From NCBI GenBank assembly GCA_964599285.1, contig CAZREI010000001.1:34562-98561 (forward strand): a stretch of 64,000 bases of DNA, given 5' to 3'. Positions 17,090 to 63,978 of this stretch are shown here, piece by piece. The DNA is from an uncultured Candidatus Saccharibacteria bacterium. Lineage in GTDB: Bacteria; Patescibacteriota; Minisyncoccia; Minisyncoccales; Staskawiczbacteraceae. Every line of letters starts with the position of its first letter. Position 1 is the stretch's first letter. The notes beneath the pieces are model-generated. The model worked only from the letters and a program-made list of their open reading frames with translations. It did not search any database and was not told the origin of the DNA. The translations under genes and the position numbers were made by a program.

Positions 17090-19717
17090 ATGCCCCAATC
17101 CGCAGCGGTTTTTGAATTTACTTCTTATACATTTGAACCCGATAAAAAAAGGGTTCTTTTCCGTTACACCACCAAATTTAAGGATCGACCACCGCTGCGT
17201 TTTACCGAAACTATTTTGTTGCCAAAGATTCCCAACCTTGATCGCATTCCGCCAGAACCTTTAAAAAAACTCCTCCAAAGCCTGCACTTAATACTGGGCA
17301 TCAGTTATTACAAGTTTTATTGCCCGCCCGCCGTAGCCTTGGCGAAGGAGGATGCGAAACTGTCAAAACAAGAAGCCGAGTTTTGGAACATCGTATACAA
17401 AAAAGGCCTTGGCGAATTTTTTTACAAAAACAATCTGAATCCAAACCGCGCTCCAAAATTTCCGTACGGGGTAACCCGTAACCAGGAACCCGTAACCAGT
17501 AAATTACGCGTTACGGGTTACGCGTTACCGGTTACCAAAAGATCTCTCGTGGGCATCGGGGGAGGAAAAGACTCCATCGTCGCCGCGGAATTATTGAAAG
17601 AAGGCGGGTTTGACGCCACCGCGTTTTACGTTCAAACCAGCAGCGACTCATCGCTGGTAAATAGCATCATCAAAAAAACTGGCCTGCCGTCGCTGAAAAT
17701 TCGACGATTGCTAGACGAAAAAGTGCATCAACCTCATCTTTATGATGGCCATGTTCCCGTGTCAGCCATCCTGGCATTTTTGGGATTTTTTGCCGGCATA
17801 CTTTACGGTTTTGATTATGTCATCGTGGGCAACGAATACAGCAGTAACTTTGGCAACCTCAAATACAAAGGTTTAGACATTAACCACCAGTGGAGCAAGT
17901 CGTTTGAATTTGAAACGCTTTTTCAAACCTATGTAAAAACTTTCATCACGCCTGACATAACCTATTTTTCTTTGCTGCGGCGGTTTTACGAAATCCGGAT
18001 TGTAAAATTGTTTGCAAGTCATAAAAAATATTTTCCGCATTTTTCAAGCTGCAATTCCAATTTCAGAATCGCGGAATCACGCGGAAATTTACGCGGAAAA
18101 ATGCGGAATAAATGGTGTGGTCGATGTGCTAAGTGTGTTTTTGTATTTACACTTCTGTCGGCGTTTTTACCAAAAAAAGAATTGGTTAACATTTTTAAAA
18201 AAAACTTGTACCAAGATAAAACTCTCCTGCCATTATTTAAAGATATTTTGGGATTTGGCGCGATGAAACCTTTTGATTGCGTCGGCACGTTTGAAGAAGC
18301 GCAAACCGCGATGTGGCTGGCCAAAAAAAGATTCGCCCGTGATTTTATTATGCGACAACTTGGCCGGCGCGTAACATTTCACCAAGAAGTTTTTACGACC
18401 AACAAAAACGCCCGCATTCCCGAACAGTTTACTTTCTTGGGAATGGATAGCACGTTGATAGCCGGATTTGGCAACGAGGGAAGTGCTACCAAGAAATACC
18501 TTGAAAAATATTACCCAAAATTAAAACTTGGGATAGCCGAAATATATAAAAATAGGGAAGTGTTCCGCGTAGTTCCGCGTGAATTTCCGCGTAGTTCCGC
18601 GGCTTTTGATCTGGCAATCAAAACTCCAGGCATCAAAAAAGAACTGATTAAAATTCCGTACACCACCGCCACCAATATTTTTTTCTCAAATATTTCCGGC
18701 AAATATCTTACTATCGGCGTTACCGGCAGCAAAGGAAAAAGCACCACCGCGTCACTCATTTTTCATATCTTAAAAACCGCCGGAAAAAATGTTCACCCCG
18801 TTAAATCCGCCAAAAGCGGTGTTTCGCAAACTGCGAAACAATTTAACAGGGTAAAACTATTGGGCAACATTGGAAAACCCATGCTAGAAAATTTGCTCCA
18901 TCCTATAGCAAAAAATACCATTTTTGTCCTGGAACTTTCCAGTTACCAGTTAGATGACCTGCGGTTTTCTCCCGATATTGCCGTGGTGACAAATTTATTT
19001 CCGGAGCACTTGGATTTTCACGGTAGTCTTCAACATTATTACGATGCCAAAAAAAATATCATCCGCTACCAGCAGCCCGACCAATATTTTGTCTACGATA
19101 AAAAAACTGAACCGTGGCTAAAAGAATATCGAGGCAAGCCGGTGCCATTTGCCAAAACAATTCCGGTTCCAAAACACCAAATTCCATTATTGGGTCAGCA
19201 CAATGAAAGCAACATTAAAGCGGCCATCGCCGTCGCTCGGATTTTAAAAATTCCGGAAGCAAAAATAAAAAAAGCCATTAAATGTTTTAAAGGCTTACCG
19301 CATCGATTAGAAAACGTAGGAACATTTAAGGGAATTATTTTTTACGACGACGCCATTTCCACCACGCCCGAATCAACCATCATGGCCATCAAAGCCTTGC
19401 CAGGCGTGCAAACTATTTTTTTGGGAGGCAGCGACCGCGGCTACGATTTTTCGCAGTTGGAAAAAACCTTAAAACAATATAAAATAAAGAACGTGGTGCT
19501 GTTTCCCGACACCGGCTCGCGCATCATAAAAAACACCAAGGGTTTGAATATTCTAAAAACTCGCAGCATGGAAAAAGCGATTGCCTTCGCCTACAAACAC
19601 ACCACACCAGGACACATCTGTTTATTGTCCTGCGCATCGCCCAGCTATTCATTATGGAAAAACTTTGAACACAAAGGCACCCAATTTACCAGATTGGTAA
19701 AAAAGTTGGCTAAGTAG
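17090..19717 (+). CDS. murD: fusion protein: PP-loop-like N-terminal domain (possible MurL-type epimerase) plus UDP-MurNAc-L-Ala--Glu ligase MurD
   Basis: The C-terminal half carries 'IGVTGSKGKSTTASL', 'LELSSYQLDD', 'NLFPEHLDFHGS' and 'GLPHRLE'. The N-terminal ~455 aa carry 'VGIGGGKDSIVAAELL' and 'WCGRCAKC'. Confidence 0.85.
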   Translation: MPQSAAVFEFTSYTFEPDKKRVLFRYTTKFKDRPPLRFTETILLPKIPNLDRIPPEPLKKLLQSLHLILGISYYKFYCPPAVALAKEDAKLSKQEAEFWNIVYKKGLGEFFYKNNLNPNRAPKFPYGVTRNQEPVTSKLRVTGYALPVTKRSLVGIGGGKDSIVAAELLKEGGFDATAFYVQTSSDSSLVNSIIKKTGLPSLKIRRLLDEKVHQPHLYDGHVPVSAILAFLGFFAGILYGFDYVIVGNEYSSNFGNLKYKGLDINHQWSKSFEFETLFQTYVKTFITPDITYFSLLRRFYEIRIVKLFASHKKYFPHFSSCNSNFRIAESRGNLRGKMRNKWCGRCAKCVFVFTLLSAFLPKKELVNIFKKNLYQDKTLLPLFKDILGFGAMKPFDCVGTFEEAQTAMWLAKKRFARDFIMRQLGRRVTFHQEVFTTNKNARIPEQFTFLGMDSTLIAGFGNEGSATKKYLEKYYPKLKLGIAEIYKNREVFRVVPREFPRSSAAFDLAIKTPGIKKELIKIPYTTATNIFFSNISGKYLTIGVTGSKGKSTTASLIFHILKTAGKNVHPVKSAKSGVSQTAKQFNRVKLLGNIGKPMLENLLHPIAKNTIFVLELSSYQLDDLRFSPDIAVVTNLFPEHLDFHGSLQHYYDAKKNIIRYQQPDQYFVYDKKTEPWLKEYRGKPVPFAKTIPVPKHQIPLLGQHNESNIKAAIAVARILKIPEAKIKKAIKCFKGLPHRLENVGTFKGIIFYDDAISTTPESTIMAIKALPGVQTIFLGGSDRGYDFSQLEKTLKQYKIKNVVLFPDTGSRIIKNTKGLNILKTRSMEKAIAFAYKHTTPGHICLLSCASPSYSLWKNFEHKGTQFTRLVKKLAK
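17464..17536. repeat. intragenic in-frame hairpin (CGTAAC/GTTACG words)
   Basis: 'ggtaacccgtaaccaggaacccgtaacc...gttacgggttacgcgttaccggttacc' encodes 'GVTRNQEPVTSKLRVTGYALPVT'. Confidence 0.7.
18067..18113 (+). repeat. intragenic array of 4x CGCGGAA
   Basis: 'aatcgcggaatcacgcggaaatttacgcggaaaaatgcggaa' encodes 'ESRGNLRGKMRN'. Confidence 0.7.
18558..18602 (-). repeat. intragenic array of 4x TTCCGCG (inverse of the 18067 array)
   Basis: 'ttccgcgtagttccgcgtgaatttccgcgtagttccgcgg' encodes 'FRVVPREFPRSSA'. Confidence 0.7.
18796..18851. repeat. intragenic in-frame compound hairpin
   Basis: Outer stem ccccgttaaat/atttaacaggg with inner hairpins ccgc-caaaa-gcgg and tgtttcgc-aaact-gcgaaaca. Encodes 'HPVKSAKSGVSQTAKQFNRV' between the MurD P-loop helix and 'LLGNIG'. 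Confidence 0.7.
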
Positions 19718-19720
19718 AAC

Positions 19721-19806
19721 TGGCTACCAAATACGAATCTGTACGAATATACCAATAACCAAAGCGTTTTCATTCGTATATTCGTACAGATTCGTATTTG
19801 GTAGCA
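19721..19806. repeat. family D (TACGAATAT-word) long hairpin, copy 1
   Basis: Perfect 29-bp stem gctaccaaatacgaatctgtacgaatata / tatattcgtacagattcgtatttggtagc. It ends 3 nt before the ftsW start. Confidence 0.85.
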
Positions 19807-19808
19807 TA

Positions 19809-21536: not shown

Positions 21537-22649
21537 ATGAAAATACTTTTTACCGGTGGGGGAACGGGCGGCCACTTGTTTCCCGTCATTGCCATCGCCC
21601 GGGAACTCAAGCGCTTGTCGCAGGACCCGTCCATTAGCCTGCACTACATTGGTCCCGCGGACAGATTGGGCAGCGCGGTTTTGGCCCAGGAAAACATTGC
21701 CATTCATTCCATTGTTGCCGGAAAACTGCGCAACTATTTTTCTTTACAAAATATCAGCGACGCGCTTTTTTTTATTCCCCTTGGATTTTTGCAAAGCTTT
21801 TTTTTGTTGCTTTTTATCCGACCCAATCTGGTTTTCAGCAAAGGCGGCACCGGATCGGCCCAGGTGGTACTGGCCGCCAGAATTTTGGCCATCCCGATAT
21901 TCATTCACGAATCCGATTCGGTAGCCGGCCGCGCCAACAAGCTGGCCTATTCGTGGGCCAAAAAAGTGTTTGCCTCATTTGAAAAAACTGATTACTTTGA
22001 CCCGTCAAAATCCGTGGTAGTGGGCAACCCGATATTAAAAGAAATCACCGAAGGTGACAAAAAAACCGCAAAAGATATTTTCAATCTTGCACTGCAAAAA
22101 CCGGTTTTACTCTTTTTGGGAGGTTCGCAAGGCGCCCAGCCCATCAACGATTTTATCCTTGGCATTTTGCAGGATCTGACAAGAAGTTACCAGGTCATCC
22201 ATGTCTGTGGCAAAAAAAATGAAACAGCAGTCAAAGAAGAGTCTGACGTGATTTTGACTGGCGACGCAAAAGCGCAATACCATGTTTTTGGATTCCTCAA
22301 TGAAATAGAACTAAAACATGCCTTCGCCGTCGCGGACTTGGTGGTTTCGCGGGGCGGGTCGGGCAGCATTTTTGAAATCGCCGCTTGCGGCAAACCCAGC
22401 ATTATTATTCCTTTGCCATCATCGGCCAACAACCACCAAGCCAAAAATGCCTATGCGTACGCCAAAAATGGCGCGGCGCTGATCATAGAACAAGACAACC
22501 TGACCCCAAACTTTTTTCTGGAAAAACTGCGCAATTATTTTTCACATCCGGAAGAGTTGGAAAGCATGAGCCAAGCCGCCCTGCAATTTGCCAAGCCACT
22601 GGCAGCCAAAGCGATTGCAAGAGAAATCTTGGAATTTCTCAATGCGTAA
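21537..22649 (+). CDS. murG: UDP-GlcNAc:lipid I N-acetylglucosaminyltransferase MurG
   Basis: 'KILFTGGGTGGHLFPVIAIA', 'RGGSGSIFEIAACGKPSIIIPLP' and 'HQAKNA'. Confidence 0.9.
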   Translation: MKILFTGGGTGGHLFPVIAIARELKRLSQDPSISLHYIGPADRLGSAVLAQENIAIHSIVAGKLRNYFSLQNISDALFFIPLGFLQSFFLLLFIRPNLVFSKGGTGSAQVVLAARILAIPIFIHESDSVAGRANKLAYSWAKKVFASFEKTDYFDPSKSVVVGNPILKEITEGDKKTAKDIFNLALQKPVLLFLGGSQGAQPINDFILGILQDLTRSYQVIHVCGKKNETAVKEESDVILTGDAKAQYHVFGFLNEIELKHAFAVADLVVSRGGSGSIFEIAACGKPSIIIPLPSSANNHQAKNAYAYAKNGAALIIEQDNLTPNFFLEKLRNYFSHPEELESMSQAALQFAKPLAAKAIAREILEFLNA

Positions 22650-22788
22650 TTGATCTAATTAACCTAATTATTCTAATTGATCTAATCAAATCCCAATGCC
22701 AAAATGTCCAAACCGTTTTAGCAATTAGTCATTCACGTTTTTAGACATTCCTTAGAATAATTAGGTTAATTAGAACAATTAGAATAAT
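22648..22788 (+). repeat. family F long hairpin (AATTAGAATAATT arms), copy 1
   Basis: Arms 'taattaacctaattattctaattg' and 'cttagaataattaggttaattagaacaattagaataatt'. It ends 7 nt before the gltX ATG. Confidence 0.8.
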
Positions 22789-22795
22789 TTAAAAA

Positions 22796-24265
22796 ATGAG
22801 AGAGAAAAAATCAAAAGTAAAAATAAATGATATTCGCGTGCGCTTTGCTCCCTCTCCCACCGGTCCTTTGCACATTGGTGGCGCTCGCACGGCGCTGTTT
22901 AATTACCTGTTTGCCAAACAACACAAAGGCAGCTTTTTGTTGCGCATTGAAGATACTGATAAAGAACGTTCAGATCAAAAATGGACCCAGGAAATTATTG
23001 ACGAATTACACTGGTTGGGCCTTGAGTGGCAAGAAGGTCCGGATGTGGGCGGTAAATTCGGCCCATACAAGCAATCTCAGCGGCTTGATATTTACCAAAA
23101 ATATTTAGAAAAATTATTAGCAGAAAACAAATCTTATTATTGTGATTGCAGTCCGGGAGAATTAGAAGCCAAACGCCAAGACCAGCAAAGCAGGGGACTG
23201 GCACCAAAATATGATGGCAAGTGCCGTGGTTTGCACAAAACCCAGGGCGTCATTCGGTTTCATATAGAAAATAAAAAAGTGAAATTCCACGATTTGGTGC
23301 GCGCTGATGTGGAGTTTGACATGGGACTTTTAGGTGATATTGTCATTGCCAAAAATCTGGAAACTCCGCTGTTTCACTTCACTGTTGTGGTTGATGATTT
23401 TTTGATGCAGATAAGCCACGTCATCCGCGGCGAAGAGCACCTGTCAAACACGGCCCGCCAAATACTATTGCAGGAAGCGCTAGGATTTTCGCATCCGATA
23501 TACGCGCACATTCCGCTGTTTTTAAATCCTGACCGCAGCAAAATGTCCAAACGTCAAGGGGACGTGACACTAAAGGACTACCATGACAAAGGTTATCTGC
23601 CTGAAGCGCTGATAAATTTCATGGCGCTTTTGGGCTGGAATCCGGGGACCCCTTCGACTTATCGCTCAGGGCAAGCTGAAAAAGAAATATTTACGCTTGA
23701 CCAATTGGTCAAAGAATTTTCCTTGGAAAACGTGCAAAAATCCGGTGCCATATTTAACCTGCAAAAATTGGATTACTTAAATGGCTATTATATTCGCGAA
23801 AAATCTGCGGCGGCTTTGGTGAAATTGTGTTTACCGTATTTACCGGAAAGCGCGGCCAACCTGCCTAAAAAAACGCTGGAAAAAATAGTAGAAGCATACA
23901 AAGCGCGGCTAAAAAAACTTTCCGATATTACCGAACTAACAAATTTTTTCTTTCAAGAAAAATTATCATACGACAAAAAATTATTAGCCTGGCAAAAAAT
24001 GGGGGATAGGGAAGTGAGGGAATCATTGGAGCATTCACAAAAAGTTTTATCATCGGCAAAAAAATGGGACAAAAAAGGTTTGGAAGAATTACTGGTCAAA
24101 GAAGCTGAAAAATTCAATCCAAAAAGCAAAGGAAATTTGCTGTGGCCGCTAAGAGTAGCCTTGTCTGGAAAAGAAGCATCGGCCAGCCCGTTTGAAATAG
24201 CCGAAATTCTAGGCAAAGAAAAATCAATGCAAAGAATCCAAGAAGCCATAGCACTGCTTGATTAG
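22796..24265 (+). CDS. gltX: glutamyl-tRNA synthetase
   Basis: 'RFAPSPTGPLHIGGARTALFNYLFA' (HIGH) and 'KMSKRQG' (KMSKS). Confidence 0.9.
   Translation: MREKKSKVKINDIRVRFAPSPTGPLHIGGARTALFNYLFAKQHKGSFLLRIEDTDKERSDQKWTQEIIDELHWLGLEWQEGPDVGGKFGPYKQSQRLDIYQKYLEKLLAENKSYYCDCSPGELEAKRQDQQSRGLAPKYDGKCRGLHKTQGVIRFHIENKKVKFHDLVRADVEFDMGLLGDIVIAKNLETPLFHFTVVVDDFLMQISHVIRGEEHLSNTARQILLQEALGFSHPIYAHIPLFLNPDRSKMSKRQGDVTLKDYHDKGYLPEALINFMALLGWNPGTPSTYRSGQAEKEIFTLDQLVKEFSLENVQKSGAIFNLQKLDYLNGYYIREKSAAALVKLCLPYLPESAANLPKKTLEKIVEAYKARLKKLSDITELTNFFFQEKLSYDKKLLAWQKMGDREVRESLEHSQKVLSSAKKWDKKGLEELLVKEAEKFNPKSKGNLLWPLRVALSGKEASASPFEIAEILGKEKSMQRIQEAIALLD
23651..23678. repeat. intragenic in-frame repeat word in gltX
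   Basis: 'ccttcgacttatcgctcagggcaagctg' encodes 'PSTYRSGQAE', at a position where GltX proteins are usually contiguous (from memory). Confidence 0.4.
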
Positions 24266-24275: not shown

Positions 24276-24309
24276 AATGGCTAATTCGCACGAATTAGCC
24301 ATTTTTATT
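24276..24309 (+). terminator. hairpin terminator after gltX
   Basis: aatggctaattcg..cgaattagccatt followed by tttatt. Confidence 0.55.
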
Positions 24310-24360
24310 GTGCGACCCCGCTCAGCGGGGTCAAGGTCCGCTTAGCGGACCGACAGTTTG
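24304..24360 (+). repeat. family B double-hairpin element
   Basis: 'tttattgtgcgaccccgctcagcggggtcaaggtccgcttagcggaccgacagtttg'. Confidence 0.85.
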
Positions 24361-25080: not shown

Positions 25081-25119
25081 ATTTTACGGATGTGGTAAAA
25101 TACATTAACGCGTCGCAAT

Positions 25120-25174
25120 CTTATTGTGCGACTCCGCTCAGCGGAGTCAGGGTCCGCTTAGCGGACCGACAAAT
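25120..25174 (+). repeat. family B double-hairpin element
   Basis: 'cttattgtgcgactccgctcagcggagtcagggtccgcttagcggaccgacaaatg' carries a compensated hairpin variant (ACTCCGC/GCGGAGT). Confidence 0.85.
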
Positions 25175-25610: not shown

Positions 25611-26591
25611 ATGGAACAAAGCAATATACCAATCCCAAAACACATAAATAACTTCTTAGATTGGATAGATATTGAAAAAGGATTATCTTCTAAAACTCAA
25701 GAAAATTACCGCAGATTCCTTGAAAAATTTTTGGTTTGGTTGAAAAAAAATAATTTAGAAAGTTTGCTTCCCCACCAGCTAACCAAAGAACATATTTGGG
25801 ACTATAGGGTCCACTTATCACGTCATTCCCCTCGACCCAGCCGACCTGGGTACCCCGATAACCAGCCTTTAAAGAAGATAACCCAAAACTACTATTTAAT
25901 CGCTTTAAGGGCCTTTTTAGGCTATTTTGTGGCCAAAGACATACTTTCCATGCCTCCCGATAAAATAACGCTTTCTAGGCCCGATAAAGAGAAAATAGTG
26001 AAGTTTTTGACACTAGAACAGCTATATAAGCTATTTTTAGCTCCAGATACCTCTACGATGCAAGGATTGCGAGATAAAGCCATATTAGAGACCTTCTTTT
26101 CAACCGGAATGAGAATATCAGAGTTAACTTCTTTAAATCGGGAGCAAATTAAAATCAAACCAGGTGCAAATGAAATAGAACTTGGAATTGTCGGCAAGGG
26201 AGGCAGGGCTAGAACCGTTTATTTTTCAAAAAGCACCGTAGAATCGCTAAAAAAATACCTTGACGCGCGAGATACTCAAAACGATAAAGAAAAGGCATTA
26301 TTTGTAAGTTATAGCGGAAAAAAAAATTCACCACACAGATTAACTCCAAGAGCCATTGAAAAAAACTTAAAAAAATACATCATTTTGGCGGGTCTGCCGG
26401 TCACCACAACCCCCCATGTCCTGCGCCATAGCTTTGCTACTGATTTATTGACCCAAGGCGTGGATTTAAGAGTTATCCAGGAATTTCTGGGACATAAAAG
26501 CATTGTTGCCACTCAAATATATGCCCATGTTACGAGTAAAAAATTAAAAGATATCCACCAAAAATTCCACGGCGAGCCAGGTTCAAAGTAA
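25611..26591 (+). CDS. tyrosine recombinase, XerC/XerD-like
   Basis: 'HVLRHSFATDLLTQGVDLRVIQEFLGHKSIVATQIYAHV' (R-H-R-Y catalytic region) and 'GKGGRARTVYF'. Confidence 0.85.
   Translation: MEQSNIPIPKHINNFLDWIDIEKGLSSKTQENYRRFLEKFLVWLKKNNLESLLPHQLTKEHIWDYRVHLSRHSPRPSRPGYPDNQPLKKITQNYYLIALRAFLGYFVAKDILSMPPDKITLSRPDKEKIVKFLTLEQLYKLFLAPDTSTMQGLRDKAILETFFSTGMRISELTSLNREQIKIKPGANEIELGIVGKGGRARTVYFSKSTVESLKKYLDARDTQNDKEKALFVSYSGKKNSPHRLTPRAIEKNLKKYIILAGLPVTTTPHVLRHSFATDLLTQGVDLRVIQEFLGHKSIVATQIYAHVTSKKLKDIHQKFHGEPGSK
25821..25858. repeat. intragenic in-frame repeat word in the recombinase gene
   Basis: 'cgtcattcccctcgacccagccgacctgggtaccccga' (family C-like GTCATTCC plus a cccag..ctggg hairpin) encodes 'RHSPRPSRPGYPD'. 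Confidence 0.45.
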
Positions 26592-26631: not shown

Positions 26632-26729
26632 GTGTCGCACAATAAAACGCTCCTACCCACCTACGAGTAGGAGTGTTTTGTCGGTCGCTAAGCGGACCCT
26701 GACCCCGCTCAGCGGGGTCGCATAATAAG
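26632..26729 (-). repeat. composite: truncated family B tail, 24-nt hairpin module, full family B copy (left island boundary)
   Basis: 'gtcgcacaataaaacgctcctacccacctacgagtaggagtgttttgtcggtcgctaagcggaccctgaccccgctcagcggggtcgcataataag'. Confidence 0.85.
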
Positions 26730-26804
26730 ATTGAGGCAAAGAAAAAGCCCTGCGCATTGCTGACGCCGGGCCTGTTTTTTTTTGCGTGGTAAGCGTGGAT
26801 ACGC

Positions 26805-27615: not shown

Positions 27616-27671
27616 AAGTCGGTCCGCTCAGCGGACCGAAACCCCGCTTAGCGGGGTTGCACAATAAAAAG
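27616..27671 (-). repeat. family B double-hairpin element
   Basis: 'gaagtcggtccgctcagcggaccgaaaccccgcttagcggggttgcacaataaaaag'. Confidence 0.85.
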
Positions 27672-27711: not shown

Positions 27712-28212
27712 ATGACAGCGAAAATATCAGAATTTAATTTAGCTCAACTTGCCAGCGATGACGGCTGTTTTGATTTGCAGTTTCGCAAGGATACTCGGCA
27801 CGATCGCACCGGCTCCCCCACTTACTATCGCTGGAAGGCGCAATTTATTATTACCCTGCCAAAAGAACAAGTTGACATTTTGGAAAAAGCTAAAAAAACT
27901 ATCGGCTGTGGTACGGTTTCAAAAACTGCTACACAAGCCCGATTTTCGGTCCAGAACATTGATGATATTGCCGATGGCGTAATCCCCTACTTTACCCAAC
28001 ACAAGCTGTCGGGCAATAAAAAACAAGATTTTTCGCTGTGGCAAAAAGCCGTCCAAATTATTTACCAAAATAAGCGGACGCCGCTTTCCAAATGGAAAAA
28101 GAATGATTTGTTGAGCCTTCTGCAAATCCACAAAGCCAGCGCCAAATATAAAATAAAACCCAAAAAATCCAAGTGGATGGAGATGGCACAAGTGTTAGTT
28201 AAAAAACCGTAA
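27712..28212 (+). CDS. LAGLIDADG-family homing endonuclease, single-motif (homodimer-size), free-standing
   Basis: 'FNLAQLASDDGCFDL' is a LAGLIDADG-type motif. 166 aa. 'GVIPYFTQHKLSGNKKQDFSLW' is typical of the family. Confidence 0.75.
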   Translation: MTAKISEFNLAQLASDDGCFDLQFRKDTRHDRTGSPTYYRWKAQFIITLPKEQVDILEKAKKTIGCGTVSKTATQARFSVQNIDDIADGVIPYFTQHKLSGNKKQDFSLWQKAVQIIYQNKRTPLSKWKKNDLLSLLQIHKASAKYKIKPKKSKWMEMAQVLVKKP

Positions 28213-31530: not shown

Positions 31531-31535
31531 AATTC

Positions 31536-36304: not shown

Positions 36305-36308
36305 TATT

Positions 36309-40657: not shown

Positions 40658-40663
40658 ATCGTC

Positions 40664-42097: not shown

Positions 42098-42100
42098 ATA

Positions 42101-52010: not shown

Positions 52011-54488
52011 TTATTTTTTAACTATGGGTGGCGGAGTTGGAGGTACTACCGGAGCCATAACAAACGAGCGCTTTACAATATCTTCTTCCACTATCGCTCG
52101 CGGTTTTCCGTATTTTAATTTGGAGATTTTTTTTATGGCTTCCACAATTTTTGGATTTCCTTTTTTGGGCGCGTACGTTTCCATTTTAAATGGGCTTGAA
52201 ATTTTGTTATTTAACATCATTTTTACAATCAAGTTAAAGTTGTCCAAATTGACCAAGTCAAAACGCGAGAAGCCCGGCTCAAACTGTTTTTCCAAAAATT
52301 CAGCATCTTCCGCGCCAATCCGGAAAGCGCCGATCGTCCCCACGTTCCCCAGCACTGCATTTTTAATTTGATCAGTTAGTTGTGGAATATATTGATGAGC
52401 GATGGTTAAATTTAATTTATACTTTCGGGCTTCAGATAAAATGGTGGCAATGGAATCGGTGGTAAAATTTTGGAACTCGTCAACATACAAGTAAAAATCT
52501 TTTCGCTTTTCAGACGCCATAGCAGATCTTTTCATAGCCGCCATCTGCATTTTGGAAACCAAAATCAGACCCAACAAAGAACTGTTAACTTCACCGGTCT
52601 GACCCTTAGATAAATTGGCCAAAAATATTTTTCCGCTATCCATAATTTCCGATAAATCAAACCCGGATTGACCCTGTCCGATAATATTTCTCATCATTTC
52701 GTTTTCAATGAACCGCCCCACTTTTGACACCACATATCCCAACATATCGCTGCGAGTATTTCCTGTTGTCTGCGCCCATTCTTTGACCCAAAAATTCCTG
52801 ACCACCGGATCCTGCACCTTGGCCAGACGTTCCTGCAAAAAAGCTGGGTCGGTAAACATTTTGGGAATTTCCACCAGCGTGCCCGGGTGATCCTTGTCGG
52901 CCATCAGCGCCAGCATGGCGTTTCGCATGTAGTGTTCAAACATCGGGCCGATGATTTCTGGCGGAAATAGTTTGTAAAAAATGGCAATCATTTCCTGCAC
53001 CGCAAAATCTTTTTGCTCGGGCGAATCGTATTCCAGCATATTTAAACCCATGGGTCGCTCCAGGTCAAAAGGTTCAAACAACACCACGTCGTCAACTCGG
53101 TTTTTGGGAATGTTGGCCAGCGTCGCTTCTATTAATTCCCCGTGCGGGTCAATGACTGCCACGCCTTCCCCATTTTCAATATCCTGTCGAATCATTTCCT
53201 GTAAAAAGGCCGATTTTCCGGTACCGGTTTGCCCAATGACATAAAAGTGGCGGCGGCGATCATCGCGCGAAGCAAAATAGACCCTTTTTTCTTCACCGCG
53301 AAACAATACTTTGCCCAATAAGTTAATCCCCTGTTCCGGCAAATCGCTGGGCGGAGCAGCCACCGCGGATTTTGCGGCTTTAATATAAGGAGTTTCGGTA
53401 AAGTGCGTCGGGAAATGGTAAATGCTGGCCAGTTCTTCAATGTTTAAAATATTGCTTTGCGACTGGTCAAAAATCCGAAAACTGAATTGATACATAAATT
53501 TTTTCAGCTGCCGTTTTTGCACGATTACGGGATTTAAGCTATTGATGGCCGAAAGCGAAAACTGCGAAAAGGCGCCAACTAAGTGATGTAAAATTTCCTC
53601 CGCCCGATCTTTGGATTGGGCGCAAGCCACCAGTCGTATATTTGTTTCAAATGGCTGTTTTTGAATTTTATTTTGCACGGCGTCGTAAGCCACTTGGTCA
53701 AAACCTTGCTCTTTGGGTTTTTGGGATTCCAATTCTTTTTGAGATGGAGTTTGTGGTTTGGCTCCGCTCTTAAATATTTCCGACAAAAGCGTCATGGCCA
53801 TATTTTGCGTGGCTTCTATCACGGCGCTGCGGGCGTTTTTGCCTTCCCTGATTTTTTGCAAAGCCTTTTCGCCTTTTTTCCGTAAATTCAATCCCGATAG
53901 CGGCCGTATGATCACCTGCACCGCCGCGCCTTCGCTGGGCGCAATTTTGCTTAAATTATTGGTGATGGTTGATAAGGGATCCTTTTCCAGTTTTTGGTAG
54001 GTACTGATGGGAAATAAATAATTTTCCTGCAACTTTGTATATGCGCCGGCCGATTCTCCCTGCGGTTCAAAAACGGTATAGTCTTCAGGAACCTTGTCCA
54101 CAATAGCCCGCGGATAAACACCCTGCACGTATTTTTCAAAAGCTGACTCTAAATATGTTGGTACGCAAACATAAAACAAAATATCGCTGCCGCCGGTTTT
54201 TGAGGCGATTTCCAGAGCTATTGATGGCGCTTCTTGAAATACTTTTGGTTTTTTTAAATATAAAAAGTTTGCCAGCACTTGCTCCATTTGGGAAATTAAC
54301 ACTTTTTCTTCCTTTTGCGCCTCGCCTTCTTTTTTGGCTTCGTTTTTTGGCATCATAATCAAAAACAGGACGGATTCTAATCCGCCAAAAACCGCCCGTT
54401 TTTCCGATTGCTCTGCGCGTAGGGCAATCATAAAAGCAAAGACAATCAAGAAAAAAACCAAGATGAGGCCGTAGATGATGAAAGGCAT
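52011..54488 (-). CDS. membrane-anchored P-loop ATPase of the TraD/VirD4/HerA-FtsK type (T4 coupling-protein-like)
   Basis: N-terminal TM. Walker A 'VIGQTGTGKSAFLQEMI', Walker B 'FYLYVDEFQNF' and 'LTIAHQYIPQL'. Confidence 0.75.
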   Translation of the reverse strand: MPFIIYGLILVFFLIVFAFMIALRAEQSEKRAVFGGLESVLFLIMMPKNEAKKEGEAQKEEKVLISQMEQVLANFLYLKKPKVFQEAPSIALEIASKTGGSDILFYVCVPTYLESAFEKYVQGVYPRAIVDKVPEDYTVFEPQGESAGAYTKLQENYLFPISTYQKLEKDPLSTITNNLSKIAPSEGAAVQVIIRPLSGLNLRKKGEKALQKIREGKNARSAVIEATQNMAMTLLSEIFKSGAKPQTPSQKELESQKPKEQGFDQVAYDAVQNKIQKQPFETNIRLVACAQSKDRAEEILHHLVGAFSQFSLSAINSLNPVIVQKRQLKKFMYQFSFRIFDQSQSNILNIEELASIYHFPTHFTETPYIKAAKSAVAAPPSDLPEQGINLLGKVLFRGEEKRVYFASRDDRRRHFYVIGQTGTGKSAFLQEMIRQDIENGEGVAVIDPHGELIEATLANIPKNRVDDVVLFEPFDLERPMGLNMLEYDSPEQKDFAVQEMIAIFYKLFPPEIIGPMFEHYMRNAMLALMADKDHPGTLVEIPKMFTDPAFLQERLAKVQDPVVRNFWVKEWAQTTGNTRSDMLGYVVSKVGRFIENEMMRNIIGQGQSGFDLSEIMDSGKIFLANLSKGQTGEVNSSLLGLILVSKMQMAAMKRSAMASEKRKDFYLYVDEFQNFTTDSIATILSEARKYKLNLTIAHQYIPQLTDQIKNAVLGNVGTIGAFRIGAEDAEFLEKQFEPGFSRFDLVNLDNFNLIVKMMLNNKISSPFKMETYAPKKGNPKIVEAIKKISKLKYGKPRAIVEEDIVKRSFVMAPVVPPTPPPIVKK

Positions 54489-54494
54489 TATTGT

Positions 54495-54639
54495 GAATTA
54501 TTCTAATTATTCTAAGTGCTCTAGTTATTCTAAGGAATGTCTAAAAACGTGAATGACTAATTGCTAAAACGGTTTTGGGATTTTGGTCATTGGGATTTAT
54601 TTAGGTCAATTAGAGTAATTAGGTTAATTAGAATAATTC
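54495..54639 (-). repeat. family F long hairpin, copy 3 (reverse orientation of copy 1)
   Basis: The centre 'ggaatgtctaaaaacgtgaatgactaattgctaaaacggttttgggattttggtcattgggattt' is the reverse complement of the copy 1 centre. It starts 7 nt upstream of the ATPase ATG. Confidence 0.8.
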
Positions 54640-54649
54640 GCAAGGAATT

Positions 54650-55688: not shown

Positions 55689-55848
55689 TGTCATTGCGAG
55701 ACGGCGCGCCCTCGGGCGCGCCGTTTTGGTAACTCTCGCCACCGTCATTGCGAGTCCCGACCGCAGACCCGCTAAGCGGGCCCGCAGTCGGAGACGCGGC
55801 AATCCAGTCATCACAAAAAGATTGCTTCGCTGCGGCTCGCAATGACGG
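55689..55848. repeat. cluster of three family C elements (one containing a GC palindrome at 55701-55724)
   Basis: 'tgtcattgcgagacggcgcgccctcgggcgcgccgt', 'ccgtcattgcgagtcccgaccgcag...gacgcggcaatcc' and 'gattgcttcgctgcggctcgcaatgacgg'. Confidence 0.8.
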
Positions 55849-55887: not shown

Positions 55888-58800
55888 TCACTTGTTAACG
55901 GTATTTAGAGCCGCCAGTGTGGCCGGTCCCACGTTGCCGGTTTGGCGAATGTTTTTTGATTTCTGAAAAAGTTTTACGGCTTGTGTGGTGGCTTGTCCGT
56001 AGTAACCATTGGGAATCGCGGTTAAAAATCCCAACTTTACCAAAAGCTGTTGAAGATTCAAAACGTCGGGACCACGGTCGGTCGGGCCAAGGTAGCGAGT
56101 CAAGGACGTGCTTAAGATTGCTTCGCTGTGGCTCGCAATGACGGGTGACATGACCGTAACTTGGGCAACCGCTCGAGCCTCATGGCCATAGGAATCTTTG
56201 GCAAAGACGGTGATGGTGTGCGTTCCAATATCATGTTGAGTCGGAGTCCAGGTAAAGATGCCCAAGGCATTGATGTTGGCGTTGGTGATACTGGTGGCCA
56301 CGGCAGGCGCGGGCGGCGTGGACTGCTTATTCTCACGAATAAGCAGTCCGTTGAGAACGTCTTTGGTTTTGGGGCCCACGTTTCCGGTTTGGCGGATGTT
56401 TCGAGATTGCTGGAAAAGTTTTACGGCAGTGATGGTTGATGGACCGTAGTTTCCGTTTGGTTGGATGTTTGATGGAAAGAAACCTTGCTGGTGCAACCAT
56501 TGTTGCAGTGCTAAGACATCGGGGCCGTGATCGCCCGGACCAAGGTAGCGGGAGAGCAACGCGCTTTGCGGAGGCACAGTGACGGGTGGCAAAGACACTA
56601 CCGGAGTTGATGGAGTAAACTGGTCGCTTAAAGAATACAACGGGTTGGTGGCAAAACCTTGTGGGTAAGCCTTGAGCGTAACCTGATTACCCGCGGCAAC
56701 GGATTGCTTTGAGTTGGAAAGCGAGAGGCTGAACTGAGAGCCGATCCAGCCGATGCCGCCACCCCCGCCACCTCCACCGGACGGAGTTGGTGTGGGCGTT
56801 GGCGAAGCCGCGGCCGGCGTGGTAGCAGAAGATTCGTTGGATGGATTTCCGATGCCAACAGAATTGATAGCAGAAACTCGGTAGTTGTATTGGGTGCTGG
56901 CAGTCAGGCCGGTATTGGAATAGGTGGTTGCAGTCGTCCCGGTATCGGCCACCAAAACAGCAAATCCGTTGCCAACCGGAGATTCTCTTTCTATTTTGTA
57001 ACCAGTAACCGTTCCTGAAGGCGCCGTCCAAGATAAATCAATCTGGCTGGTAGAAATAGCCGTAGCTGATAAATTAGTTGGAGCATCAGGAATAAATAGC
57101 TGCCAACGAAGATATGGGTAGCCATCGTTGCGCGCCAATGCGCTATCGATGTTCCAAATAGTGGCAAAGTCCCAAGGTTGTGATCCGCCTTGAGCATAAA
57201 CGGCATGAGTAGTTGCTCCCTTGAAAACAGTGGCACCGGCGGGTTCCAGAGTGCCTTGCCCGTTGTCGTGAGCGGAGTCAGTGAAGAAGGAGTTGGTGAT
57301 GGTGGGAATTACATTAGTGTTGCCTATTAAACCACCTACGTTACCTGTACCAGAAACGGTACCGTTAGCATAAGAGTTAGTGATGACAACTAAATTAGCG
57401 AAAGAAATTCCCACTAACCCGCCTATGTTACCGTCGCCAGAAACATTACCGGTAGCATAAGAATTGACAATGGTAGTGGGACCATACGCGCCCGCCATGA
57501 GCCCACCGCTATCAAATCCCGTCCCAAGAACACTTACATTCCCCGTGGCATACGAGTTGGTGATGGTAAGGGTGCCATCTGAGTCACCCACCAAGCCGCC
57601 AGTGTAGATACCGGTTACATTTCCGGTAGCATAGGATTTATCAACAATGAGGATGCCATCCATGTCACCGACTAATCCGCCGATACCATACGATGAATCA
57701 TCGCTGCTTGTGTTGGCAGTAGAGTAAGATTGGGTGATAGTAGTGATTCGGTCATATGGACTAAAATCGTCTTCCACGTATCCCACCAAGCCTCCAATAG
57801 CAAAAGCATTAGTAGGAACTCCGGTTACGCTTCCCGTAGACCAGCAGTTGGTGATGGTTGAAGTGCCAGATGACCAGCCGACAAGTGCGCCAACTTCATA
57901 ACTGCCACTTATGTTAGCTGATTCCACACCAACATTTTGAATGGTAGCATTGTTAATGAAACCAAAAAGCCCAATGGCTTCCACGCCGCTAGTGTTGATG
58001 AATAAGTTAGTGACTTTGTGTCCTTGGCCATTCAGTGATCCTGTGAAGGGAGTGAAGGTGTTATCAAAATCTCCCACGGGGATGAATCCCGCGCCGGAAT
58101 TCCAGTTGACGGTGTCGGAACAGTCAATGTCTCGGTCTAAAATAAAATAGGAAGAAAGCCAGTTATTCATTTCTTGGAGTTGGGTGCAGGAAGTGATTAC
58201 ATACGGATCATTTTGGGTGCCAGAACCCGAGCCGAAAAAAGAGCCTCGTGTAGTAAAATTCAACTCATCACCATACGCGTATCCCTGCGAATTGTGAGCA
58301 TAAGCCCTAAAATAATATGTGGTACTTGAGACGAGGCCAGTTAGGGAAGAGGAGAATGAAATGGCACCAAATGGACCATTGGCATCTTCCGTAAACGTGT
58401 CGTAGCCCGAAGAACCTGGCGCAGTGTTACCAGGATCTGATGGGAAGCTGGTGGTGCCATACACAAATCCTCGCTTGTCGGCATCTTCGCCGCCGGTATC
58501 GGTGATGGTGCCATGGACATCGGCGGCTGTAATGCCAATATTGTCGGAGGAATCGGTGGTAACTACCGGCTGAGAATTGGAAAAGATCCAGCCGGTGTTG
58601 TTGTCTGGGTCGGTGATGGAGTTTGCTCCGGCATACCATTGGGCGCCACCCGTCGCAGCGGAGTCTTGCAAATCAAGGTAGTCGCAATGAACAACGCCCG
58701 ATGGTTTGGACAAGGTATGACGAACTCCGTTGGTGGATGATCGAATGGTAATAATATTTCCTGGACTCCCGGCACAAGTGAACGTGCCATTGATGGTTTG

Positions 58801-61425
58801 AGTGAGAGAGGAGGGGAAGGCAATAGATTCAGGGGCGCCGATGGTAAAATTAGCGAACGTGTTTGCTGAAGAGAAAATTGATGACCCATTTGCTCCTGAA
58901 ATTACGACTGAGGTAGGATAGAATCCTCCAATAGTTCCATTAAAACTGATGAGACCAGAAGAAGTAATGGTGAACACGGGAGTAGTTCCGTTGGCTCGAT
59001 CAACAGAATCAGAAAAGGTAATATTACCATTTCCTGTATCAATGGTAGAATTAGTCGGTATTTGAACTGGACTATTGAATAGCACTGACTGATTCGAGGT
59101 AGTTACATTAGCGTTAAGAAAAGTAAATCCACTGCTAAAAGTAAATGCCCCACTGCCGGAAGCGGTTTGATTTCCATTAAGGAAAATGAAATTTTGAGCA
59201 ATAAAATGAATCGATGTATCCCAAGAGGAATAACTATTTAATGTTATCGTATCTGTTTTTGAGTTGTCACCGATGGTTAGGTCAGTGTAGTTAAGATAAC
59301 CCAGTGTCGTGCTATCAAGTTGCAAAGTTCCCGTTCCGCCGGCTACTCCCACGGTGGTGCTGGCAGTGTAAGGGGCGATCGTCAGTGACGAAACGCTGTT
59401 GATGTCATTGGCTTGGGCAAGGTTGATGGTATCTGTATTAACCGTGATGGTGCCAGTGCCGCTGGTTTGCAGGCCACCAGATATGCCCACTTGGATACCG
59501 TAGTTAGAACTATCACCACCGCCGCGAATACCAATAATAGACAAGTTACCAGACCCTGTAGTTTTGATAGTACTGTTAGTATTAAAAATTGAAATTCCAA
59601 CATTGTCACTACCTGTTCCAGCTCCGCCGCCCGTAGCAGTGATACTCAGATTACCATCAGCCGTAGAAATAGCGCCGCCACTTCTCACAGTTACACCATA
59701 ATTGCTATCGCCATTACCGCTGCCAGTGCCTCCGCCATTACCGATAATACTTAAACTTCCTGATCCGGTATTGCTCATAAGAGCATTGGTACCGGAGACT
59801 TTAACACCATAATTAGCATTACTGGCATCATCACTGCCTCCAGTACCGGTGATAGTCATCGCGCCTCCCGAACCGGTAATAGAACTGCCATCGTTGACGT
59901 AAATACCATAATTACCAAATCCACCACCCGACCCGCTACCACCAGTCCCCGTAACCGAGAGGGTTCCGGTGCCGGTTGTTTGAATACAATGAGAAACCTG
60001 ACACTCAACTCCATCATTAGAATTGCCTGAACCATCAGAATCTCCGCCAATACCCGAAACTGAAAGATTGCCCGAACCGGTAGTTTTAATAGTGCTATTA
60101 GTATTTGCAATCAAAACACCATAACTAGTACTGCCCGTCCCCGCACCACCGCCATTACCGGTAGCAGTTAAATTCCCATCAACCGTAGAAACAATTGCAC
60201 CGCCTCCCATTTGCAAGCCATAGTCTTGGCTACTATCACCAGTTCCCATTCCATTGGCGGTTACAACAAGGGTGCCTGATCCGCTATTATTGATAGCGGC
60301 GGTGCTGCCCGAAATGCGAATGCCGGCATTACTACTGCCGCTGCTATTGCCGCCAGTACCCGTGATAGTCATCGCGCCTCCTGAAGCATTAATAGAACCG
60401 GCCACAAAAATGCCATTGTTACTGCCTCCACTGCTGGTACTGCCGGTTCCTGTAACTGAAATAGCACCAGTACCGGTTGCTTGAATACAATTAACTACAT
60501 TGCAATATACTCCATAATTGCTCCCGCTACTCCCGCTGGGATTGCCCCCGGTTCCGGTAATTGAAATATTCCCCGAACCCGTGCTTTCAATGGTGCTATT
60601 GGTTCCAGTAATATAAACGCCATAGTTATTAGCGCCTGACCCTGCTCCTCCGCCGGTACTATTATTGATGGTAAGATTGCCATTCTCTGCAGAAATACTG
60701 CCACCGGCCGCGACTCGCAAACCATAATCACTATTGCTATTGCTGGTACCATTTCCATTACCCGTGATGGAAATGGTACCCGAACCAGTAGTAGTGATAT
60801 GGCCGTCAAGACCAACGCCTATATTGTTATTGGTAGTAGTGGCAAAACCTTGTCCATTAGCTATGACATTGCCTCCGCCAGCGGTTATTGTCCCTGAAAT
60901 ATAAATACCAATCGGCTGACCAGAATTTCCTATGGCAAACCCGGCACCCGTATCAATAGTACCGCTGCCCCCTCCTACAGTAACATTCCCTCCATTAGAT
61001 GTAATCGTACTATCAATCAGTACATAGCCGGAAGAGTCGGCATCTCTATCCGCATTCAATAAAATGTTAAGTTTGTTGGATGTAGAGGAAATATTTGCAC
61101 CAATATTGAGTATAATATTACTATCAGCGTAGAAACTTGCAGTCGCATCAGTTCCGGAAGATTTGGTAAAGGCATTGTTGACGGTGATGCTGCCTCCGCT
61201 GGCGGTAAAGCTCACACTCGTGCTTGCATTAAGTTGGGTTTGGATATCAGTAACATTGACGACGCAATCACTACCGCTGGTCGCCCAATCCGGACTGCCG
61301 GTGCAAGTAGTAGAAGAACTACTGATAGTAAGGTTGGCAGCTTGGGCGAATACCGGCAGGAACACAAAAAACACGGTAAGAATGAGTGACAGGAGAAAAA
61401 TGTTTTTTACATTACATTTTAACAT
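55888..61425 (-). CDS. giant surface protein: Gly/Ser/Thr-rich tandem repeats, GLUG-motif repeats, FN3, Ig-like and two PG-binding domains
   Basis: Signal peptide. ~140-aa repeats 'TGSGNLS..G.GG...'. 'GGLVG' occurs 6 times. '[21 protein letters not shown]...GYKIERE' is FN3. There are two 'LG.GD.GPDVL.LQ..L...GF......G.YG..T..AVK.FQ....I..TG.VGP.T' domains. Confidence 0.85.
56116..56144. repeat. family C element embedded in frame in the giant gene
   Basis: 'gattgcttcgctgtggctcgcaatgacgg' differs by 1 nt from the intergenic copies at 55820-55848 and 30560-30587. It translates as '[10 protein letters not shown]'. Confidence 0.85.
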
Positions 61426-61538: not shown

Positions 61539-61560
61539 GCGCGGCCCCGCGGGGCCGCGC
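61539..61560 (-). terminator. perfect 22-nt GC palindrome, likely prmC terminator
   Basis: gcgcggccccg|cggggccgcgc is flanked by an A-run and a T-run. Confidence 0.6.
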
Positions 61561-61584: not shown

Positions 61585-62364
61585 CTAATCACAAATAATC
61601 ACGTACCTAAATTTACCGTACTGGTCTTTGCGAAATTCCCAGTGATTGTAACCGTATTTTTTTAATAATTTTTCTATGCCAGGTTTTTGCGGCGGGTCAA
61701 ACTCCATGTATATTTTTCCGTTTTGGTTTAGGAAATTTTTGGCTTCGGCCAAAAATTTCCTGATGTAAAACAATCCATCCTTTCCACCAAACAAAGCCAT
61801 TTTGGGTTCGTATTGTAAAACTGATTTTTGTATGTTATTTTTTTGTGTCGTTGGAATATACGGCGGATTGGCAAAAATGTAATCATACCTGCCTTTTATA
61901 TTACTAAAAACATCTGATTGAACGACATGATGCCTTTTCTTATTATCTATTCGCTTATTCGTACGAATAAGCGAATAGTTTATTTTTATATTTATTTTTA
62001 TCTGTTCTAAAAAGTTTTTTTCTTTTTCCACAAACGTTAGAGTCGCGTTTTTAATCTGTCGCATAATAGAAACACCAATGCACCCGGACCCGGCAAACAT
62101 ATCTAAAACTCGTATACTACGTTTTTCACGGCCGTTAAAATCAGAGTATATGTCTTCCGTGGCTTTTTGGACCCAATATTCCGTTTCCGGCCGAGGAATC
62201 AAAGGCTTTTTCGACAAATCAATTTTGCATCCTAAAAATTCAGTAAAGCCAATAACATAATCCACCGGCTCCCCCATTTTCAGGCGCCTAACATCTTGTT
62301 GAAATTTTGCAGTTGGCTTTCCCTGATATTTCTCTTTCAAAAGCCATGAGATTTCTTTTTGCAT
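61585..62364 (-). CDS. prmC: release-factor glutamine N5-methyltransferase
   Basis: 'VLDMFAGSGCIGVS' (SAM motif) and 'IFANPPYIP' (NPPY). Confidence 0.85.
   Translation of the reverse strand: MQKEISWLLKEKYQGKPTAKFQQDVRRLKMGEPVDYVIGFTEFLGCKIDLSKKPLIPRPETEYWVQKATEDIYSDFNGREKRSIRVLDMFAGSGCIGVSIMRQIKNATLTFVEKEKNFLEQIKINIKINYSLIRTNKRIDNKKRHHVVQSDVFSNIKGRYDYIFANPPYIPTTQKNNIQKSVLQYEPKMALFGGKDGLFYIRKFLAEAKNFLNQNGKIYMEFDPPQKPGIEKLLKKYGYNHWEFRKDQYGKFRYVIICD
61947..61978. repeat. perfect 32-nt palindrome embedded in frame in prmC
   Basis: ctattcgcttattcgt|acgaataagcgaatag, built of ATTCGT/ACGAAT words, translates as 'YSLIRTNKRID'. Confidence 0.8.
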
Positions 62365-63592: not shown

Positions 63593-63597
63593 ATCTT

Positions 63598-63628
63598 TAA
63601 AAAAGCAGCTTTAATAGCTGCTTTTTTG
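63598..63628. terminator. bidirectional-shape terminator after rplU
   Basis: aaaagcagct-ttaat-agctgctttt. Confidence 0.65.
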
Positions 63629-63636
63629 CGGATTTT

Positions 63637-63978
63637 TTAATTTCCAATTTTTAAAATCTCAATTTCAGTGAACAGTTGCCGATGTCCGATTTTTCTTTTG
63701 TATCTTTTCTTGGGCTTGTATTTAAAAATAATCAGTTTTTCGCCTTTGCCATGATTCAGTACTTTGGCGGTTACTTTGGCATCTTTTACTAGCGGCGCGC
63801 CAATTTGCATATCTTTGTTTCTCGCACCCTCCTTCGCTAAAGCTTCAGAAGAGCAAAGCAATAAAACCTCGCCAAAGGTAATTTCTTTTCCTTCTTTTTC
63901 ATCCAGTTTTTCCACCTTGATTTTATCGCCGGGCTGGACAAGATACTGCTTGCCACCGGTTTTAATCACTGCAATCAT
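63637..63978 (-). CDS. rplU: ribosomal protein L21 (with a short internal insertion)
   Basis: 'MIAVIKTGGKQYLVQPGDKIKVEKL' and 'KVLNHGKGEKLIIFKYKPKKRYKRKIGHRQ'. Confidence 0.9.
   Translation of the reverse strand: MIAVIKTGGKQYLVQPGDKIKVEKLDEKEGKEITFGEVLLLCSSEALAKEGARNKDMQIGAPLVKDAKVTAKVLNHGKGEKLIIFKYKPKKRYKRKIGHRQLFTEIEILKIGN
63824..63851. repeat. intragenic in-frame repeat word in rplU (GCGAAGGAGG type)
   Basis: The reverse complement 'cttctgaagctttagcgaaggagggtgc' encodes 'SEALAKEGA', which is absent from the L21 sequences I can recall. Confidence 0.5.

Follow-up and report, generated by a model that had tools for sequence, protein, structure and literature searches.

Short repeat and hairpin sequences lie in frame inside genes of unrelated function in a 64,000-nt stretch of DNA from an uncultured bacterium (contig CAZREI010000001.1, positions 34,562 to 98,561; hereafter the window). 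Judging from its sequence relatives, the source genome belongs to the Parcubacteria (candidate phyla radiation (CPR)/Patescibacteria), near Candidatus Staskawiczbacteria: the best relative of its murC is 73% identical, and most murC relatives are labelled Staskawiczbacteria, Nealsonbacteria or Patescibacteria. The inserts are mostly specific to the lineage, sporadically distributed among orthologs and related to one another as families at the DNA level and, in the two proteins that we modelled, they occupy loops. We screened the window genes for internal, window-specific inserts of at least 5 aa, taking only the 30 genes with at least four comparators, and found such an insert in 11 of them. 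We consider it probable that several unrelated, very short repeat families colonise coding DNA in this lineage and survive only in frame and where tolerated, much as Rickettsia palindromic elements (RPEs) and intragenic repetitive extragenic palindromic (REP) elements do.

A sequence-only reading of the window had listed nine segments of this kind, and all nine lie, with their translations, where it placed them. Pfam matches agree with its naming of the host genes: a Mur-ligase fusion (murD), a glutamyl-tRNA synthetase (gltX), a tyrosine recombinase (xer-like), MurC, a LigT/ThpR phosphoesterase (thpR), an HHH_8 protein with a helix-hairpin-helix (HhH) domain, a cell-surface protein (the adhesin), PrmC/HemK and ribosomal protein bL21 (rplU). 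The description of these hosts as essential does not obviously extend to thpR, xer, the HhH protein or the adhesin. Insert limits were set against PDB homologs, closer orthologs from genome loci (80) surrounding murC and from metagenome loci (10) surrounding gltX, two syntenic contigs and 120 PrmC and 120 bL21 database homologs; about 90 other Parcubacteria loci served as a wider sample and 1.34 Mb of Parcubacteria DNA as the basis of a word census. The ortholog alignments that the reading had proposed delimit insertions in gltX, prmC, rplU, murC, the HhH gene and thpR; the xer segment is shared with a relative, the murD fusion gains 3 aa only and the adhesin cannot be scored.

The gltX insert (23651-23677, + strand) consists of 27 nt in frame that contain the word GCTCAGGGCAAGC and add nine residues, WNPGT[PSTYRSGQA]EKEIF; the bracketed residues are missing in 10 of 10 aligned relatives, eight of which are 69-77% identical. 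Another nine residues, SLIRTNKRI, are added to PrmC by 27 nt (61945-61971, - strand) associated with a perfect 32-nt palindrome at 61947-61978, giving INY[SLIRTNKRI]DNKK vs IN-KI-NK in relatives. In rplU, 30 nt (63823-63852, - strand) add ten residues between two beta-strands (VLLLCS[SEALAKEGAR]NKD), which are extra relative to every PDB bL21 and to the 103-aa form that dominates the clade. The 33-nt murC insert (47228-47260, - strand) adds 11 residues, KYP[SNPPSRKASEG]RRKIW against KYPKQKIW in orthologs. The HhH gene holds 36 nt (49818-49853, + strand) that add 12 residues and include a perfect 28-nt palindrome made entirely of G and C (49819-49846), so that the protein reads EEYIQ[SAARPRARGAGG]FGKIK where orthologs have EEYIK-KGKIK; the core of this insert matches an intergenic GC-only palindrome at 55701-55724 in 17 of 18 nt. 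The largest insert, in thpR (48677-48781, - strand), is 105 nt long, adds 35 aa and has terminal inverted repeats of 16-19 nt, with ends CCTCGGGCGCCTAAATTTTT and AAAACTTAGGAGCCCGAG. Here the window has KVP[35 aa]PRYIW; 71 orthologs were aligned, and of the 39 displayed most read KIPPRYIW and none contains the window's insert.

The phenomenon is wider than the nine segments: it includes a class II tRNA synthetase, the MurD domain, a second adhesin site and the related Parcubacteria that we sampled. The class II tRNA synthetase (Asp/Asn/Lys type) carries an 8-aa insert, PAQGKQGD (43609-43632, - strand), with the same word GCTCAGGGCAAGC as gltX, at a site that is an insertion hot spot among orthologs. 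In the middle domain of MurD, VHPVKSAKSGVSQTAKQFNR (18791-18850, + strand) is a window-specific insert of 20 aa containing two hairpins, one of them at 18820-18840. The adhesin, a cell-surface protein of 1845 aa with fn3 and PG_binding_1 domains, has two linker sites. At the one already listed (56116-56144, - strand), immediately before the last PG_binding_1 domain, VIASHSEAI is encoded by a solo end of an intergenic CGTC-tagged repeat (family F3, below), and its difference of a single nucleotide from intergenic copies is borne out by 30/31 nt identity to the copy at 55818-55848. The second (56320-56349, - strand) is a palindrome with a 13-bp stem encoding LLIRENKQ and belongs to the same family as the prmC insert. 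Neither adhesin site can be scored as an insertion because linker length is very variable and close orthologs are lacking. The adhesin gene itself (55888-61425) is missing from the otherwise syntenic rplU-prmC-...-EF-P-HhH-thpR-murC region in two relatives, L092 and L094, and is probably a lineage-specific acquisition.

Two of the nine original cases are slighter. The xer segment RHSPRPSRPGYPDN (25821-25862, + strand) forms a small hairpin, CCCAG-CCGAC-CTGGG, and is about 7 aa longer than the corresponding part of relatives at 55-59% identity; the closest relative (L088, 84% identity) has it too, minus two residues. The murD-fusion copy CCGCCCGCCGTAGCCTTGGCGAAGGAGGAT (17324-17353, + strand), which encodes PPAVALAKED, overlaps residues that exist in orthologs (PTKIKLP---Y there), for a net gain of only 3 aa; it is a genuine repeat copy but a weak case of insertion. 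This copy lies in the N-terminal part of the murD open reading frame (ORF; 17090-19717), where MurD is fused to a domain of about 440 aa with an SGGKDS PP-loop motif. Close relatives have the same fusion (824-865 aa), and more distant ones encode the N-terminal domain and MurD separately; we presume that the domain may be a MurL-like epimerase partner of MurD2, and refer to it as MurL-like.

Small repeats and hairpins are abundant in the window, which has a GC content of about 43% and contains several intergenic repeat families and 40 perfect hairpins with stems of at least 9 bp, against 1-5 in shuffled sequence. Scans with Rfam and for tRNAs returned tRNA-Ala alone, and the words are therefore matched by no known RNA family. 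A scan for GC spikes (27-nt windows, at least 70% GC) gave 152 hits and was dropped as an insert finder because it was too unspecific. The sequence-only reading had treated all nine segments as members of repeat families. Repetition within the window is demonstrated for three families only, F1, F2 and F3; each of the gltX, xer and thpR segments is found there once.

F3, the CGTCATTGCGAG family, has 10 copies in the window where 0.24 are expected; nine are intergenic and the tenth is the adhesin copy. Each of the ten has the tag CGTC or TGTC, after which comes a stem with AT as its first bases. Inverted pairs lie at 14606/14666, 33710/33745 and 55743/55836, and the sequence folds either as a 5-bp stem or as 13-nt ends around about 80 nt. 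An intergenic composite at 55689-55848, which includes the GC-only palindrome 55701-55724, has CCGTCATTGCGAG and CTCGCAATGACGG paired as 13-nt inverted ends around inner hairpins. The F2 palindromes (CTWATTC..GAATWAG; CT(T/A)ATTCnnnCGAAT(A/T)AG) occupy three loci against 0.02 expected: the prmC insert, the second adhesin site and AATGGCTAATTCGCACGAATTAGCCATT (24276-24303, + strand), a hairpin directly past the gltX stop that is followed by a T run and is terminator-like.

The F1 word (GCGAAGGAGG, "ALAKEG") is present in three window copies against 0.08 expected, all three inside genes: in the MurL-like domain, in rplU in the sense orientation and in murC read on the opposite strand. The claim that three segments share AGCYTTNGCGAAGGAGG is accurate for two exact matches, the murC version being 1 nt longer. 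From 79 copies in IMG/VR we derived the consensus GCCCTCCG(T/A)AGCCTTGGCGAAGGAGGGT, with a 6-bp stem and a conserved 14-nt loop; the window copies match it with degenerate left arms, and in rplU the stem is preserved by G-U pairs in the mRNA sense. The 79 copies fall in 75 stretches, which by rough estimate is only about twice chance overall, so that it is the multi-copy contigs and the flanking consensus that are informative. Over 25 nt, the MurL copy does not differ from IMG/VR copies at L101 and L127, on contigs of 53-59% GC. At the position of a possible tag, which is weakly conserved, the MurL copy has GTAG and the rplU and murC copies GAAG; the two alternate in IMG/VR. Some GC-rich IMG/VR contigs of viral or provirus origin hold the word repeatedly (examples within L095-L169 are L100, L131 and L144, which are one 33.8-kb contig, and L101, L127 and L143), and these copies have common flanks, CCCTCCG(T/A)AGCC...GGAGGGT.

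The translation of one word in more than one frame, and from either strand, points to elements defined at the level of DNA rather than to protein motifs. F1 is read as ALAKEG in rplU and the MurL-like domain, as PPSRKAS from the opposite strand in murC and as SLGEGG at another site of the murC of L012; in a bL21 homolog from another organism, PSPKASEGQ occupies the same loop as the rplU insert of the window. In the 1.34-Mb Parcubacteria sample, CGTCATTGCGA encodes VIAS, SLR, RNDG or LAMT, and its stop-containing frame is never used; for CTTCGACAAGCTCAGG, three frames are in use. In murC orthologs, the GC content of insert DNA is 0.5-0.78, compared with 0.30-0.42 in the gene that holds it, and many of the inserts form hairpins. 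We found no local or tandem duplication as a source of inserts, which share no sequence with their flanks.

The description of the elements as palindromic applies to part of the set. Taken as single DNA strands, four of the nine form a better fold than shuffled sequence: HhH (z -3.8), prmC (z -6.3), xer (z -2.3) and the ends of the thpR element (z -2.75). For the other five words (MurL, gltX, murC, rplU and adhesin), folding does not exceed that of shuffles. Stems measure 12 bp with a 4-nt loop in HhH and 14-16 bp in prmC, and these two palindromes have neither a GTAG nor a CGTC tag.

Among relatives, the same loop positions are reused by different inserts. MurC orthologs have sporadic inserts in about 20 alignment blocks, and the 120 PrmC homologs hold 75 inserts of at least 6 aa, some of which are N-terminal extensions. 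The site of the prmC insert is filled in 22 of the 120, by LIR(A/T)NK... or ISNSHELE..., scattered through the neighbour-joining tree; at the protein level these peptide types look like two phases of one kind of palindrome. The bL21 loop accommodates at least eight insert types among 120 homologs. At the "KIPP" site of ThpR, where the window has the 105-nt element, L005, L014 and L092 have the word FDT(T/A)Q(G/D)KP, and further inserts occupy it elsewhere. Nucleotide positions differ between events, and we therefore read the hot spots as places that the protein tolerates, not as sequence targets.

Empty and filled sites are sharp at the codon level in gltX, prmC, murC, thpR and HhH. Frame is kept in the orthologs sampled: none of 80 murC, 75 thpR and 33 HhH orthologs has an insert out of frame, and every insert seen across orthologs (more than 100) keeps the frame and has no stop. 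One candidate exception, a frameshifted insert in the thpR of L023, was rejected since the frameshift lies elsewhere in the gene. The expectation of surface loops agrees with AlphaFold models of two proteins, built from family alignments. In PrmC (mean pLDDT, the predicted local distance difference test score, 93.9), insert residues 130-139 are placed between helix 116-128 and strand 145-149, and in bL21 (mean pLDDT 85.1) insert residues 43-53 are placed after strand 38-42 and before strand 57-59. Both inserts sit in the lowest-pLDDT stretches of otherwise confident models.

The sequence-only reading compared the segments with RPEs and could name no other well-known precedent. RPEs (Ogata et al., 2000, 2002; summarised in PMC10969869 and PMC3733652) are repeat DNA that has entered housekeeping genes of unrelated function, in frame, in a reduced genome, and PMC3733652 describes a CGTC end tag for them. 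Classical RPE-1 is about 100-150 bp long and encodes one conserved peptide in one frame. The gltX, prmC, rplU, murC, HhH and thpR inserts are in frame, missing from orthologs and in ORFs of unrelated function. As with RPEs, occurrence is sporadic among orthologs and both intergenic and intragenic, in loops taken as exposed; the CGTC tag is found here in F3. The comparison stands for in-frame, lineage-specific, repeat-derived inserts, but not all of ours are palindromes or demonstrated repeats, and they differ from RPEs in being mostly 27-36 nt long, in falling into several unrelated families, in being translated in several of the frames and from either strand, and in including non-palindromic words. 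The host is also different (Patescibacteria/CPR), and inserts are denser, 64 kb holding them in 11 of the 30 genes that could be tested.

There is another precedent besides RPEs. REPs tagged with GTAG or CGTC lie in frame inside genes in several phyla, tRNA synthetase genes included (Di Nocera et al., 2013; PMC3733652). They form stem-loops of 20-40 bp, with stems of 6-9 bp and loops of about 4-5 nt, that frequently lie as inverted pairs downstream of genes, and the CGTC families, which have no dedicated transposase, have a stem that begins AT, with an expected stem of 8-9 bp and a loop of 4-5 nt (PMC3733652). Here, likewise, certain copies are contained entirely in ORFs and add residues to the protein, tRNA synthetases being among the hosts. 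F3 alone resembles REPs in its many, mostly intergenic copies and inverted pairs, F1 differing with three of three copies intragenic; F3 further has the CGTC/TGTC tag and the AT stem start, and one window copy of F1 has GTAG. The dimensions of F3 (a stem of 5 bp, or ends of 13 nt that enclose about 80 nt) seem not to fit, however, F1 mostly has GAAG rather than GTAG and combines a 6-bp stem with a 14-nt loop, no gene for a REP-associated tyrosine transposase (RAYT, IS200/IS605-type) is present among the window's 53 ORFs, and the phyla reported do not include this one. With a usual length of 27-36 nt rather than 100-150 nt, the elements are closer to intragenic REPs than to classical RPE-1.

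[quoted passage not shown] Only the thpR element resembles them: its 105 nt are within 70-300 bp, and it has terminal inverted repeats of 16-19 nt, no coding capacity of its own and a fusion in frame. It differs in being single copy without a clear target-site duplication, and the other inserts are too short. By analogy, the system appears to work like RPEs and intragenic REPs, and no family described here is filed under a named REP or RPE family. In our literature collection, which is incomplete, we found no report of such inserts in CPR, Patescibacteria or Parcubacteria, and a search with the literal words returned nothing relevant.

Under the interpretation that we favour, the elements, some 27-36 nt long, would be either hairpins or words made of a short stem and a conserved loop, together with one 105-nt element with inverted ends, presumably moved by an enzyme acting in trans or by templated repair. 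Intergenic copies would resemble REP- or terminator-type hairpins, and copies would also enter genes. Survivors would be those with a length that is a multiple of three, no stop in the frame used and a position in a permissive loop or linker; they would in all likelihood be translated, as short Ala/Arg/Gly/Ser/Pro-rich loops, with predicted junction peptides such as VLLLCSSEALAK and GWNPGTPSTYR. With selection for tolerated loops and linkers, the same positions would be hit repeatedly in different lineages.

Several observations weigh against this interpretation. No transposase of the REP-mobilising type is present among the 53 ORFs of the window, and no consistent target-site duplication or target motif is seen at the insert sites, the possible duplication in thpR being ambiguous. 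The gltX, xer, thpR and MurD inserts are single copy in the window, and for the thpR element about 1.4 Mb of related DNA and IMG/VR yielded no second copy either. In the sampled DNA, F1 (4 of 4) and GCTCAGGGCAAGC (8 of 10) lie inside ORFs, unlike a mainly intergenic repeat. In two relatives at 79% protein identity, the rplU insert has identical codons at 7 of 8 conserved residues, compared with 48-63% elsewhere in the gene, and nucleotide conservation of the xer segment is similar; conservation of shared inserts above what is expected of neutral junk hints at constraint or homogenising. At the HhH site, the window, L008 and L016 have different GC hairpins with complementary arm differences. 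A second prmC hairpin (61730-61761, - strand), perfect and with a 14-bp stem, lies in a native helix (RKFLAEAKNFL) and is not an insertion, and it is kept in relatives by paired arm changes that alter the protein (L012: DAFLAAAKNAF). Such conserved hairpins and paired changes suggest independent insertions, selection for the hairpin or arm-to-arm homogenisation by template switching.

Paired changes of this kind would also be expected if hairpins arose and grew in place, by template switching in quasi-palindromes or error-prone repair, with no element moving. The second prmC hairpin, perfect in native coding sequence, and the HhH inserts, which differ at one site by paired arm changes, both fit this explanation, as do an xer hairpin that exceeds that of its closest relative by 6 nt, the single-copy inserts and a window without a transposase. 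Yet identical words of 17-25 nt recur in unrelated genes, distant genomes and different frames, the adhesin segment matches intergenic copies at 30 of 31 nt, the inserts have no sequence in common with their flanks, and non-palindromic words such as those of gltX and rplU are not obtainable by hairpin correction; we regard an origin in place as unlikely. The retention of inserts for a function of the nucleic acid, the protein loop being a by-product, is in our view decidedly unlikely, whether the function is that of an mRNA hairpin, of an internal Shine-Dalgarno-like pause site or of a protein-binding site. F1 contains AAGGAGG and its consensus is conserved across very different genomes, the C-to-T changes in the left arm of the rplU copy preserve G-U pairs in the mRNA sense, and hairpins are maintained with complementary changes; the synonymous codons shared in the rplU insert also count in its favour, although that signal rests on 8 codons. 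Close orthologs nevertheless do well without the inserts, the F1, gltX and adhesin words fold no better than shuffles, and either orientation occurs (murC vs rplU).

A further reading would take the inserts for ordinary indels in loops, specific to the lineage and shaped as protein, whose resemblance to repeats is incidental. Orthologs at 55-75% identity commonly differ by indels of at least 5 aa, the gain is small in both xer and MurL and the xer segment is found in a relative too, and the inserts occupy loops, which tolerate any indel. This reading is largely refuted by DNA words common to different proteins in different frames, and the perfect 28- and 32-nt palindromes, an insert GC content far above that of the host gene and the near-identity to intergenic copies likewise oppose it; we consider it very improbable. 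Removal from the mRNA or bypass by the ribosome would leave the inserts untranslated. Fungal mitochondria provide a model in their GC-rich palindromic clusters and "byp" elements, short GC-rich hairpins that invade the coding DNA of an AT-rich reduced genome; "byp" elements, known from yeast mitochondria, are skipped by the ribosome and need not keep frame. Some inserts here are indeed stable hairpins, and nothing more direct favours such a process. By contrast with "byp" elements, the frame is always kept: all of the more than 100 inserts maintain it, without stops, which neither process would require. Maintenance of frame and location in loops fit translated surface loops rather than excision or bypass, to which we give almost no credence.

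A broader version of the favoured interpretation would see a clade-wide and still active population of cosmopolitan mini-hairpins in Parcubacteria, perhaps in CPR bacteria at large, that persists preferentially in coding DNA, is kept at the nucleotide level by homogenising or by a function in the mRNA, and is a major, hitherto undescribed source of surface-loop variation in essential proteins, including ribosomal proteins and tRNA synthetases. We put this forward only as a speculative possibility of rather low probability.

The window also contains repeats outside genes. Perfect intergenic palindromes made only of G and C lie at 15903-15930, 55701-55724 and 61539-61560, the last being terminator-like, with a T run after it and the prmC stop just upstream. 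A repeat of about 150 nt has five intergenic copies in both orientations with up to 95% identity (7337-7485, 8922-9070, 9758-9881, 16954-17077 and 40133-40281). A double-hairpin repeat, GACCCCGCTYAGCGGGGTC plus GGTCCGCTNAGCGGACC, has eight copies (11249-11304, 12282-12337, 24300-24355, 25116-25171, 26677-26730, 27616-27669, 30415-30468 and 30499-30552), none of them in a supported gene, one overlapping the start of a 130-aa ORF without a Pfam match; none was seen in 1.3 Mb of related loci. Between double-hairpin repeats stands a free-standing LAGLIDADG endonuclease ORF (27712-28212), and a large serine recombinase is encoded near the start of the window (602-1912). Arrays of TACGAAT-type heptamers and AATTAGAATAATTAG-type words, which may be promoter or operator motifs, flank several genes (31448-31531, 36219-36306, 40623-40659, 41926-42099, 22642-22790, 50283-50424 and 54481-54648).

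The genomes of CPR bacteria are tiny and leave little space for junk. A third of the testable genes in this window nevertheless have a lineage-specific in-frame insert, and several of these inserts are recognisable repeat DNA, one of them in a ribosomal protein. If the pattern extends genome-wide, it would constitute, beside Rickettsia, a second, independent and much larger system in which selfish or repair-derived DNA becomes protein. It would also account for part of the odd length variation and of the low-complexity "junk" peptides of CPR proteins, and would call for caution among annotators and structure predictors where such segments occur. With many empty and filled sites available among metagenome-assembled genomes, the rates, hot spots and tolerance of these insertions should be directly measurable.

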